A stretch of 64,000 nucleotides of DNA from Escherichia coli (GCF_045037415.1 NZ_CP173438.1); one strand, 5' to 3'; counted from the first letter of the stretch, positions 6,001-12,000 are shown. Numbers: made by a program.

Positions 6001-9000
6001 GCCATGCAGTCGCTGGTCCTGCCGCCACCGGCACGCCAGGCGCTGGCACAGGCGGCGCTGACTTACCGTTATGGTGATGAACATCAGCCCGTCACCACTA
6101 CCGACATTCTGACGCCACGACGCCGGGAGGATTACGGTAAGGACCTGTGGAGTGCTTATCAGACCATCCAGGAAAATATGCTGAAAGGCGGGATTTCCGG
6201 TCGCAGTGCCAGAGGAAAACGTATCCATACCCGGGCCATTCACAGCATCGATACCGACATTAAGCTCAACCGGGCGTTGTGGGTGATGGCAGAAACGCTG
6301 CTGGAGAGCATGCGCTGATGCTGTTTCCCTGAAAGTGCAGCCCTGACTCACGTCTGTACCAGTCCCCATGCATTCTTCCATTCATTTACTTTTTATAAGG
6401 AATCATCTCATGACAACCTTTTCGCATAGCTCCACCACACCTTCTGTTTCCGTAACTACTGCATCAGGGAATAACCAGTCTCAACTGGTTGCCACTCCCG
6501 TCCCTGATGAACAGCGCATCAGCTTCTGGCCGCAGCACTTTGGCCTCATTCCACAGTGGGTGACCCTGGAGCCCCGTGTCTTCGGCTGGATGGACCGTCT
6601 GTGTGAAGACTACTGCGGGGGTATCTGGAATCTGTACACCCTGAACAACGGTGGCGCATTTATAGCACCTGAACCGGATGAAGATGATGGAGAAACCTGG
6701 ATACTGTTCAATGCCATGAACGGTAACCGCGCTGAAATGAGCCCGGAAGCCGCCGGCATTGCAGCCTGTCTGATGACGTACAGCCATCATGCCTGTCGTA
6801 CGGAGTGTTATGCCATGACGGTCCATTATTATCGGTTGCGGGATTACGCCCTGCAGCATCCGGAATGCAACGCCATTATGCGCATCATTGACTGAAAGGG
6901 GCTGGAACAATGCAACAGCTTTCCTTTCTGCCAGGAGAGATGACGCCCGGCGAGCGCAGCCTCATTCAGCGGGCCCTGAAAACCCTGGACCGCCATCTTC
7001 ATGAACCCGGTGTGGCCTTCACCTCCACCCGTGCGGCACGGGAATGGCTGATTCTGAACATGGCGGGACTGGAGCGTGAAGAATTCCGGGTGCTGTATCT
7101 GAACAACCAGAATAAGCTGATTGCCGGTGAAACCCTCTTCACCGGCACCATCAACCGCACGGAAGTCCATCCCCGGGAAGTGATTAAACGCGCCCTGTAC
7201 CACAATGCCGCTGCCGTGGTACTGGCGCACAATCACCCGTCCGGTGAAGTCACACCCAGCAAGGCAGACCGCCTTATCACGGAACGTCTGGTACAGGCAC
7301 TGGGCCTGGTGGATATCCGGGTGCCGGACCATCTGATAGTCGGTGGCAGCCAGGTTTTCTCCTTTGCGGAACACGGTCTGCTTTAACCCGTCACCGTTAC
7401 AACCACATCATACCTGTTTTCGCTTTTATCTTCTGTCTTCAGAGGTATCACACTATGAAAATCATCACCCGTGGTGAAGCCATGCGTATTCACCAACAAC
7501 ATCCGGCATCCCGTCTTTTTCCGTTCTGTACCGGCAAATACCGCTGGCACGGCAGCACTGAAGCGTATACCGGTCGTGAAGTGCAGGATATTCCCGGTGT
7601 GCTGGCTGTGTTTGCAGAACGCCGTAAAGACAGTTTTGGCCCGTATGTCCGGCTGATGAGCGTCACCCTGAACTGAGTCAGGAAGGGCATTCTGATGAGC
7701 CGAATTATCGCCACCATCGAACCATTCTTAACTGATTTCTGTGAGGACTTTATCGTGTCAGACACACTGCCCGGGACAACGCATCCCGACGACAATCACG
7801 ACCGCCCCTGGTGGGGGCTGCCCTGCACCGTGACGCCCTGTTTCGGGGCACGTCTGGTGCAGGAGGGTAACCGGTTGCATTACCTTGCCGACCGTGCCGG
7901 TATCAGAGGCCGGTTCAGCGACGCGGATGCATACCACCTGGACCAGGCCTTTCCGCTGCTGATGAAACAACTGGAACTCATGCTCACCAGCGGTGAACTG
8001 AATCCCCGCCATCAGCATACCATCACACTGTATGCGAAAGGGCTGACCTGCGAAGCCGATACCCTTGGCAGTTGTGGTTACGTTTATCTGGCTGTTTATC
8101 CGACACCGGCAGCGCCCGCAATCACCGTATAACCCCGGATATCTCCCCTTTATCACCACCTGTTACAGAGAACTTAAGATGAATACATTACCCGACACTC
8201 ACGTACGGGAGGCATCGGGCTGCCCGTCTCCCGTCACCATCTGGCAGACACTGCTCACCCGACTGCTGGACCAGCACTATGGCCTCACGCTGAATGACAC
8301 ACCGTTCGCTGATGAACGTGTGATTGAGCAGCATATTGAGGCAGGGATTTCACTGTGTGACGCGGTGAACTTTCTCGTTGAAAAATACGCGCTGGTACGT
8401 ACCGACCAGCCGGGATTCAGCGCAGGAGCCCCGTCGCAGTTAATCAACAGCATTGATATTCTCCGGGCTCGCAGGGCAACCGGCCTGATGACCCGGAACA
8501 ATTACAGAATGGTAAATAACATTACCCAGGGCAAGCATCCGGAGGCAAAACAATGAAACTGGCCCTGACGCTGGAAGCCGACAGCGTTAACGTGCAGGCA
8601 CTGAACATGGGGCGCATTGTCGTTGACGTCGATGGTGTTAATCTCAGTGAACTGATTAACAAGGTCTCTGAAAACGGTTATTTACTCCGCGTGGTCGATA
8701 AATCCGACCAACACGCAACCAGTACACCACCACCGTTAACAACCCTTACCTGCATACGTTGCAGCACCGCACATATCACGGAAACGGACAACGCCTGGCT
8801 GTACTCGCTGTCACACCAGACTAATGACGACGGCGAATCAGAATGGATTCATTTTACAGGCAGCGGCTATCTGTTACGTACCGATGCGTGGTCATACCCG
8901 GTTCTGCGGCTTAAGCGCCTGGGCCTGTCAAAAACGTTCCGTTGTCTGGTTGTCACACTTACCCGACGTTATGGCGTCAGTCTCATTCATCTGGATGCCA

Positions 9001-12000
9001 GCGCTGAATGCCTGCCGGGTTTACCCACTTTCAACTGGTAACCAGGAACAACATGAAATCATTAACCACGGAAACAGCACTGGATATTCTGATTGCGTGG
9101 CTGCAGGACAATATCGACTGTGAATCCGGGATTATCTTCGACAACGATGAGGATAAGACGGATTCAGCAGCACTGTTGCCCTGCATCGAACAGGCCCGGG
9201 AGGATGTCCGTGCTGTTCGTCATCTGCAGCTTCTGCACCAGAACCGGTGAATATCACTCACCATACTTCATTCCCCTGACGCCAGCCTGAATACAGCTGG
9301 CGTTTTCGTCTATAAACCAAAAGGAAAACCGATAATGTCAGACATCACAATCTCCCGTCCGGAAGTGGTCACCGGGCATACGGACGTTATCTGCTCCACC
9401 AGTATCCGACACGTTGTGACGGTACGGAATGCAGCACTGCAACAAACCGAAACGCTTATCCGGCAACTGGCAGAAATCTCAGTGCTGACAGCAGGCATTG
9501 GCGGCAAAACCGCCCTGGACTGGGCGATGAAACAGAATTTTCGCTGTGGCTGCTGGCTGATGGAAAAACCGGAAGCAGCAATGAAAGCCATCACCCGCAA
9601 TCTCGATCGAGAAATCTGGCGTGACCTGATGCAACGTTCAGGGATGCTTTCCTTAATGGATGCACAGGCCCGTGATACATGGTACCGATCACTGGAATAT
9701 GATAATTTTCCGGAAATCAGTGAAGCGAACATTCTGAGCACATTTGAACAACTGCACCAGAACATAGATGAAGTGTTTGAGCGAGGGGTGATCAACGTCT
9801 TCAGGGGACTGAACTGGAATTACAAAACTAATTGCCCCTGTAAATTTGGCAGTAAAATTATCGTCAACAATCTGGTGAGATGGGACCGGTGGGGATTTCA
9901 TCTTATCACCGGGCAACAGGCAGATCGACTTGCCGACCTGGAAAGAATGCTGTATTTGTTCAGCGGCAAACCGATTCCTGACAACCGGGAAAACATAACC
10001 ATTCATCTGGATGATCACATCCACTCAGTATTAGACGTCAACTAGTTTTGCCGACTCGCGCCAACTATACTGGCCGCACCCTTCAGTGCGACATCAAGTC
10101 GCGCTTGTTACTGCCTTCGCTGTCTTTTTCCTGTAGCTTTCACCTTTCAGTTCGAACATATATCCGTGATGGATCAGCCGGTCTGCCGCCGCCACCGCCA
10201 TAGTCTCATCCACGAAGATGCTGCCCCACATGCTGAACGGATGGTTACTGGTTATCACCAGGCTCCCACGTTCATAGCGATGCGCTATTAACTCGAACAG
10301 TACTCCCGTTTCGGCGCTGTCGCGTTTGACATAGCCAAGATCATCCACCACTATCACCCGGTAGCGATCCAGTTTCAGTAGCAGCTCATTCAGTTTCAAC
10401 TGCGCTCTGGCTTTACGTAGTTCCTGCAACAACTCTCCTGCGCTGTAGAACCGGGCCCGGTAGCCCTGGCCTACTACGCCATCCACGATCGCTGCCGCCA
10501 GATGGCTTTTCCCCAACCCGCTGGCTCCGAACAGCAGAACGTTTTCTCCTGCATCAACCCAGTCTGTCGTTTCACAGAGTTGCCGGAACTGAGCTCCATT
10601 CAGTTCCGGCACCTGACTGAAGTCGTATTCGCTTAGCGTTTTGGCAACTGGCAACCGGGCCTCCTTTTTATAACGACGCAGTTTTTCACTCTCGCGCCAC
10701 AGGAGTTCTTCATTGCATAGCGTCAGAAGATAGCGCGATGGTGTCCAGCCTTCTGCCAGTGCTCGTTTTTCCAGAGCGTGCCATTCAGCTCCAACTCGTG
10801 TCAGGCGTAGTTTACGCAGGCTGCGTTCAAGGTGATGGATATTGCTCACTGCGAACCTCCCTTGCCACGCAGTAGTTGCTCATAACTGCTCAGGTTATGC
10901 TGTTTCACATTGACTACCGGCAACGCCTTTTCCTTTATACCCAGGAAGCGCATCAGCCGGTGCAGATCCACGTTTCCCGGGGTATTCAGCATCTGCTCCA
11001 TACCTTTTGCCACGACTGAGATATCGTCGTATCCTGCAGCCAGTTTCAGAGCATGTACCATCAGCCTGCCTGCCATGTCGGGTTCCAGATGATTACATAA
11101 GCGACGCCACAGCCTCCGCCATTCATCGTCTGGCAGGATGTCATTTCTCAGCGTTGCATGGCAGAACGCACCGGGCTTTTTTGCCAGACTGTCGATCACA
11201 TGTCGGAAGTCGATACGACGGGCCCGCGTCTTCCCTTTTTCTGGTCTGACACGTGGGCAGCTCATGACCTCGCTGCTGCCAACGTAACGGCTCAGACGAT
11301 CGTCCCATAACCGGACCCGTAACAGTTGACCTACAAGCCGGGAAGGTACGCTGTAGACGACGTGCTTCACATTGATGGTACTGCTGCGGCTAACCCTCAC
11401 AGTCAGCTCATCATAGTCAGCACTGCGACGAAGCGGCAGCGGTTTCAGATGAAGACGTTCTTCCTTGACCAGATCCTGATTGTTACGGTTGTGCCGCATA
11501 ACCTGCTGAGTGATGAAGGCCTGATATTCTTCTATGGTGCTGAAGTCGTTACTGCCCCGCAGTATCAGCGCCTGACAGATACGCCTTTTCAGATGTCCGT
11601 GGGCACTTTCAACCGAGCCATTTTCGTGGCCCCGACCGGCATTATTGTGTACGCCCTGCATTCCGTAGTGCTGACAGAGAGCAGCATAACGCTCAGTCAG
11701 CTCGCGGCGTCCATCTTCGCCCTGTTGTTTCCATGCTGCCCTCAGGCTGTCCGTTTTATGTTCTACCGGCACTCCGCCCAGTTGTCCGAGGGCTTCCTGC
11801 AGACCTTCAGCCAGAGCAGAGAAGCTCTCACCACCCAGCACAACCCGCATCCAGCTCCAGTGGCTCCATTCCAGACGGAAGTGATACAACTTATGCGCCA
11901 ACAACTTACCGGCGATGGTGACAACTACACCTTTCAGTTCAGTAAAGTCCGACAGACCTCGCAGACCGGGCTGATGTCGCTGGCGGAACATGACCTCCTG

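Follow-up and report, generated by a model that had tools for sequence, protein, structure and literature searches.

Analysis of a 64,000 nucleotide stretch of Escherichia coli DNA (NZ_CP173438.1, assembly GCF_045037415.1; hereafter the window) revealed, at 6410-9250, seven uninterrupted open reading frames (ORFs) in the same orientation on the + strand, among them the toxin gene cbtA and the antitoxin gene cbeA. The block is very probably one copy of a conserved accessory block situated at the distal end of P4-like integrase-type E. coli islands, and would work like its homologues in strains K-12 and CFT073. The locus is a member of the known CbtA/CbeA system and is already annotated identically in RefSeq. 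In itself it is of little import, being a textbook paralog of an E. coli toxin-antitoxin neighbourhood that has been studied at length; only mildly new are the origin of a spurious long cbeA ORF, the relic start codon that lies in frame with cbeA in the window allele, and a frameshift in the adjacent DUF932 gene that is private to this sequence.

Gene content of the CbtA/CbeA block

The features of the block and of its flanks are listed in Table 1. The gaps between the seven genes are 14, 68, 78, 46, -4 and 11 nt, and cbeA immediately precedes cbtA in the same orientation. A first-pass annotation had described the interval as a complete and fully intact neighbourhood running from the antirestriction gene to a yeeW-like gene. 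All the genes that it named were found by ORF and Pfam analysis on the + strand, uninterrupted and in the order given, but the interval holds seven genes and not six: the yeeW-like gene ends at 9041, and the DUF957-named gene had been left unlisted. Likewise, intactness holds for the seven block genes but not for the rest of the module, in which DUF932 is frameshifted, DUF4942 is split by ISEc10 and a 214-aa gene is reduced to a relic.

Table 1. Features of the seven-gene block and its flanks, in window coordinates
Feature	Position	Strand	Basis
DUF932 gene, frameshifted, split into ORFs 5501-5776 and 5788-6318	5501-6318	+	1-bp deletion at 5757
ArdB/KlcA-family antirestriction gene, 161 aa	6410-6895	+	Pfam PF03230, E=1e-35, profile 1-92/92
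RadC-like JAB/MPN metalloprotease gene, 158 aa, paralog of YeeS/YkfG/YfjY (=LfgB)	6910-7386	+	Pfam PF04002, E=1.4e-44, profile 2-121/121
DUF987 gene, 73 aa, paralog of YeeT/YkfH/YpjJ	7455-7676	+	Pfam PF06174, E=2e-39
Spacer with relic of deleted gene	7677-7754	+	Alignment to CFT073
cbeA, YeeU-family type IV antitoxin, 125 aa, GTG start	7755-8132	+	Pfam PF06154, E=9e-55 (on ORF 7695-8132)
cbtA, YeeV-family toxin, 125 aa	8179-8556	+	Pfam PF06755, E=4e-62, profile 1-112/112
DUF5983 gene, 162 aa, full-length form of K-12 YeeW	8553-9041	+	DUF5983_N, E=1e-31; DUF5983, E=3e-22
DUF957-named gene, 65 aa	9053-9250	+	RefSeq/PGAP WP_000839254.1, identical protein, same coordinates
Terminator-like hairpin GACGCCAGC...GCUGGCGUUUUCGUC with U-tract, after DUF957	9278-9304	+	RNA fold
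DUF4942 gene, 5' part	9335-10023	+	Pfam PF13708, profile positions 1-142 of 190 only
ISEc10, IS21-family	~10024-12434		PGAP
istB of ISEc10	10094-10849	-	PGAP
istA of ISEc10	10846-12345	-	PGAP
DUF4942 gene, remaining part beyond ISEc10	12435-12579	+	PGAP remnant; BLAST against the intact L007 gene

The antirestriction gene starts at 6410 also in the annotation of the Prokaryotic Genome Annotation Pipeline (PGAP). Residues 14-161 of its product match PDB 2WJ9 (E=1.3e-95), which we take to be ArdB of CFT073, the title of the PDB record being 'intergenic-region protein'; the match to KlcA of plasmid RK2 (2KMG) is weaker (E=1.6e-19). The translation of the second gene carries an intact JAMM zinc motif, HNHPSGEVTPSKAD (H-x-H-x7-S-x2-D), and it matches the RadC subfamily model TIGR00608 (149 bits, cut-off 134), the only NCBIfam model to match. 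It falls below the cut-off of NF000642, the equivalog model of full-length RadC (159 versus 180 bits), which fits a short island-type form. Identity to the K-12 counterparts is 99% for the RadC-like protein (YeeS, 148 aa), 97% for the DUF987 protein (YeeT), 92% for CbeA and 85% for CbtA. The 65-aa product of the last gene is 94-95% identical to its paralogs and found no match in the Pfam library of 2025, even with the threshold relaxed to E<=1, so that the name DUF957 derives from the RefSeq/PGAP annotation alone. Minus-strand ORFs at 6464-6910, 6844-7374 and 7758-8159 are antisense to well-supported genes and were rejected as frame artefacts.

Ratios of non-synonymous to synonymous substitution (dN/dS), calculated by the Nei-Gojobori method for each window gene against its paralogs, ranged from 0.04 to 0.41 over the seven genes: 0.12-0.29 for the antirestriction gene, 0.07-0.11 for the RadC-like gene, 0.04-0.11 for DUF987, 0.17-0.33 for cbeA, 0.11-0.24 for cbtA and 0.09-0.16 for the DUF957-named gene. 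These values indicate purifying selection on each of the seven genes in comparison with its paralogs. The products of DUF987, DUF5983 and the DUF957-named gene, though conserved, under such selection and encoded beside a heavily studied toxin, are still uncharacterised.

Of the 5,426 complete E. coli genomes, 5,007 have the stretch from yeeT to cbeA, at a median of 3 copies and a maximum of 16. Four loci were used for comparison: L006 (NZ_AP038243.1, a chicken-meat isolate), L007 (strain 2013C-4991), L008 (CFT073) and L009 (O157:H7, beside a tRNA-Ser gene). Complete versions with 12 genes exist, for example L007 and L009, in the order GTPase, hypothetical, DUF905, DUF932, ArdB, RadC, DUF987, CbeA, CbtA, DUF5983, DUF957 and DUF4942. 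Intact copies are ordinary in E. coli, and the intactness of the window copy is not notable. In L006 (5009-7965) an ISEcp1-blaCTX-M-55 unit lies inside cbtA of a paralogous module and splits the toxin gene.

Expected functions and transcription

K-12 CbtA contacts FtsZ and MreB directly, through interactions that can be separated, and thereby blocks cell division and elongation; CbeA probably neutralises it by gathering filaments of FtsZ and MreB into bundles and not by binding the toxin (Heller 2017, PMC5624674). Overexpression of the K-12 toxin leads to growth arrest and lemon-shaped cells, which the antitoxin rescues (PMC5624674, PMC5371832), and toxicity and neutralisation have been demonstrated for each of the three K-12 pairs (PMC5371832). 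By analogy, CbtA of the window would arrest growth through the H6/H7 loop of FtsZ, and probably through MreB too, with a block of both division and elongation; CbeA, as a 125-aa protein translated from GTG 7755, would counteract it by binding and bundling FtsZ and MreB filaments without contacting the toxin. For the two leading genes, ArdB and KlcA are reported to inhibit type I restriction in vivo (PMC2836571), and LfgB, the RadC-like paralog of CP4-57, has been reported to degrade MqsA as a protease (PMC10846083). The ArdB homologue may thus be expected to block type I restriction in vivo, and the RadC-like protein to act as a JAB metalloprotease.

The FtsZ-interaction determinant of CbtA, F65, is conserved in the alignment; CbtA, YkfI and YpjF all lose FtsZ binding when this residue is changed to Ser (F65S; PMC5624674). 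Position 15 is Cys in the window and in all examined copies except K-12 CbtA, which has Arg15. YkfI and YpjF, with Cys15, still block elongation, and C15R is without effect on both (PMC5624674). The window CbtA is therefore likely, but not certain, to target MreB. Since Cys15 is the usual state among the examined copies, the MreB-binding determinant of K-12 CbtA should not be generalised.

The local anatomy, with its short gaps, Shine-Dalgarno sequences, gene overlap and flanking hairpins, fits a single transcription unit. A strong terminator-like hairpin at 5432-5461, between DUF905 and DUF932 (13-bp stem, 9 G-C pairs, T-tract), suggests that such a unit would start at DUF932. At the other end, the folded region 9251-9334 has a minimum free energy of -16.7 kcal/mol (z=-3.25 against shuffles); the hairpin within it was overlooked by the consensus scan, probably because of its long loop. 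That scan for promoters and terminators returned no more sites than shuffled sequence did, and was useful only for the hairpin at 5432-5461. Most block genes have a Shine-Dalgarno sequence, that of cbtA being weak (acagagaac). The stop codon of cbtA overlaps the start codon of DUF5983 as ATGA at 8553-8556, an arrangement conserved in K-12, L007 and L009, and DUF5983 would probably be translationally coupled to cbtA in this way. In CP4-57, yfjXY-ypjJ-yfjZF is regarded as a single five-gene operon (PMC10846083), and by analogy with this lfgABCDE operon the block genes are probably co-transcribed. An Rfam scan of 3000-13000 at E<=1 gave two sub-threshold chance matches and no RNA family in the block.

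Several points weigh against so direct a transfer from the homologues. Because R15C abolishes MreB binding of K-12 CbtA (PMC5624674), the Cys15 of the window protein means that MreB targeting is not simply transferable from it. On the + strand of 5460-9300 the consensus scan picked up no sigma-70-like promoter, and we can therefore only infer the transcription unit. The K-12 pairs have low transcript levels and no autoregulation (Wen et al., PMC5371832), which makes any physiological role of the pair tentative. Lastly, an ATG at 7695 is in frame with cbeA and has a Shine-Dalgarno sequence of its own, AGGAAGGG (7680-7687), at a spacing of 7 nt.

It is also possible, if on balance unlikely, that the seven genes form an establishment and maintenance cassette of the island, in which the antirestriction protein and the protease serve on entry to a new host and CbtA/CbeA, possibly with the coupled DUF5983 protein, serves addiction or abortive infection and not a stress response. 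The gene order is strictly conserved at island ends beside tRNA or integrase genes, the ATGA overlap is conserved, relatives of DUF5983 occur in phages, and ArdB-type proteins serve incoming mobile DNA (PMC2836571). Yet no PADLOC defence-system model matches any protein of the module, and the pairs of the three K-12 sets still act as toxin-antitoxin systems although none of these sets has an intact DUF5983 gene. Fold comparison of the DUF5983 protein, too, gave no informative match. Its predicted C-terminal domain is modelled with confidence and has near-invariant Ser71, His74 and Asp79 in a CS-TAHIT-x2-DN motif, and its fold has no known neighbour. The DUF5983 family is small, and fragments are frequent among its members; if translationally coupled to cbtA, its product might, though this is unlikely, be an unrecognised third partner of CbtA/CbeA.

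The cbeA start codon and the spacer upstream of it

The first-pass annotation had favoured GTG 7755 as the start of cbeA, and we find this start well supported by comparison with the other copies. It is the PGAP/RefSeq start (WP_015953067.1), and the homologous GTG is the annotated start in K-12 cbeA (b2004) and in the copies of four other strains. Five further long-form copies (about 124 aa) were compared with that of the window: in four of them, K-12 cbeA, L006, L007 and L009 (O157), an in-frame stop codon lies 24 nt before the GTG, the exception being CFT073, in which 108 nt upstream of the GTG are open in frame. A Shine-Dalgarno sequence, GAGGA (7743-7747), stands 7 nt ahead of the GTG and is kept in five of the six aligned copies, K-12 having TAAGGA. 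The window protein aligns from residue 1 to 125 with residues 1-125 of PDB 2INW (E=7e-84) and also matches 2H28, K-12 YeeU (E=2e-78); from these solved structures we infer a YeeU fold for CbeA. Both structure sequences start with MSDTLPGTT, at the residue encoded by the GTG.

The mechanically called ORF of cbeA opens 60 nt further upstream, at ATG 7695, and would encode 145 aa. Alignment revealed that this ATG and the next seven codons (MSRIIAT) make up the 5' end of another gene, of 214 aa, which is intact in CFT073 between DUF987 and cbeA (L008 4256-4900; phrog_5162) and which had no Pfam match. PGAP sometimes labels this gene 'antitoxin of toxin-antitoxin stability system'. Among E. coli genomes, 1,968 carry it, at 2,835 places in all, and it is found in about 18% of module copies. 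The window, K-12, L006 and L007 have lost about 600 bp of it; the window retains its first 24 nt and its tail, and O157 a 3' remnant. Evidently, the spacer between DUF987 and cbeA is the deletion scar of this gene. What is left in K-12 and L007 forms an ORF of 16 codons with its stop codon inside the Shine-Dalgarno sequence of cbeA. The run of T at 7736-7738 is TTT in the window and TTTT in the relatives, and it is this run, shorter by one T, that takes away the stop codon of such a 16-codon relic and puts the relic ATG in frame with cbeA. On this alignment the long ORF is an accident, which begins at the relic start of a deleted gene and does not represent the protein of the family.

That cbeA is nonetheless translated from ATG 7695, as a 145-aa antitoxin with the 20-residue extension MSRIIATIEPFLTDFCEDFI, instead of or alongside the 125-aa form, appears doubtful. 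The frame is open from 7695 in the window allele, the Shine-Dalgarno sequence noted above precedes the ATG, and the exact 71-nt fused allele recurs in 399 of the 5,426 genomes, from varied sources. Such an N-terminal extension is, however, foreign to the family, as the upstream stop codons of four of the five other long-form copies indicate; its first codons belong to a different and mostly deleted gene, and its fusion to cbeA hangs on the length of a single T-run. Moreover, the Pfam domain and both crystal constructs begin at or after the position of the GTG, and PGAP annotates the GTG and not the ATG. If the long form were made, it might alter the dosage or behaviour of the antitoxin. With GTG 7755 as the preferred start, the locus offers a clean comparative case for this start codon and explains the misleading longer ORF.

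Surroundings of the block and damage to its flanks

The 4.7 kb around the block are at least 99% identical to about 180 complete E. coli chromosomes, and against E. coli THO-003 the whole window shows two mismatches and one gap. The RefSeq annotation of THO-003 has the same seven genes, at equal coordinates after a 1-nt offset. The block lies at the cadC-proximal end of a large mosaic island, which also has cdi, dsd and cut genes among others; the remaining window consists of core chromosome and an insert with an autotransporter and a serine protease. This insert, at ~24,900-39,800 (THO-003 4730872-4745749), lies between duplicated yjdJ-like GNAT genes; besides the autotransporter and the serine protease, which is of the S6 family (SPATE-type), it has an AraC-family regulator and a partial chaperone-usher fimbrial cluster. 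The ghoST type V toxin-antitoxin pair is found near it. A tRNA scan of the whole window found no tRNA gene, and the tRNA anchor of the island is therefore placed outside the window.

Upstream of the block, the DUF932 gene is frameshifted by the loss of a T in ...ATGCTGCGTC[T]GCGGCGG..., the sole gap relative to THO-003 in 64 kb. The THO-003 gene is intact (272 aa) and otherwise identical, and a 60-mer spanning the deletion was found in 0 of the 5,426 complete E. coli genomes; the deletion may be a mutation private to this genome or may come from a sequencing error. Downstream, DUF4942 is broken after about codon 229 by ISEc10, and BLAST comparison with the intact L007 gene gave junctions that overlap by 6 nt, which looks like a target duplication of 6 bp. 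ISEc10 also adjoins the paralogous module of CFT073, but is located after cbtA there.

One might read such damage, the loss of the internal 214-aa gene, the low transcription of the K-12 pairs (PMC5371832) and the frequent fragments among DUF5983 representatives as signs of a cryptic element in decay, of which the block would be a silent relic with a toxin-antitoxin pair that no longer functions in this strain, but this is very improbable given that none of the seven ORFs is truncated and their domains are covered completely, that dN/dS is far under 1 in every block gene, and that the K-12 homologues, including those of more degraded sets, are still toxic and neutralising on expression (PMC5371832, PMC5624674).

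Comparison with known systems

The pair of CP4-44 in K-12, CbtA/CbeA (YeeV/YeeU), shares with that of the window the Pfam families, the order of antitoxin before toxin, the YeeS and YeeT genes ahead of them, the homologous GTG and the ATGA overlap, at the protein identities given above. The two differ in the spacer between cbeA and cbtA (46 nt in the window, 88 nt in CP4-44), in residue 15 of CbtA (Cys versus Arg), and in the C-terminal tails of both proteins. CP4-44 has flu and yeeR in the place of the DUF905, DUF932 and antirestriction genes. Its YeeS has 148 aa and its YeeW is a 64-aa stub, against 158 aa for the RadC-like protein and 162 aa for the DUF5983 protein of the window, and the window copy keeps the DUF957-named and antirestriction genes where CP4-44 lacks or truncates such genes.

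CP4-6 (YkfI/YafW) and CP4-57 (YpjF/YfjZ, lfgABCDE) have the same order of antirestriction, RadC-like, DUF987, antitoxin and toxin genes, and their toxins YkfI and YpjF share Cys15 and F65 with the window CbtA. Their toxin-antitoxin proteins are, however, only 59-67% identical to the window pair; the antitoxins have 105 aa, lacking 17-20 N-terminal residues, the toxins 109-113 aa, and the spacers 20 nt. Past the toxin gene neither has an annotated DUF5983 or DUF957 gene, only the short pseudogenes ykfN and psaA. The earlier statement that several K-12 paralog sets are partly decayed agrees with all three: CP4-44 through its missing antirestriction gene and YeeW stub, CP4-6 and CP4-57 through the absence of DUF5983.

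The modules of L007, CFT073 and L009 have the same 12-gene order as the window and 85-99% protein identity. CFT073 retains the 214-aa gene between DUF987 and cbeA, of which the window has only the relic, and DUF932 and DUF4942 are intact in L007 and L009 but broken in the window. ArdB (2WJ9) and KlcA (2KMG) belong to the same Pfam family as the first protein of the block, which is a chromosomal island copy with a putative antirestriction function.

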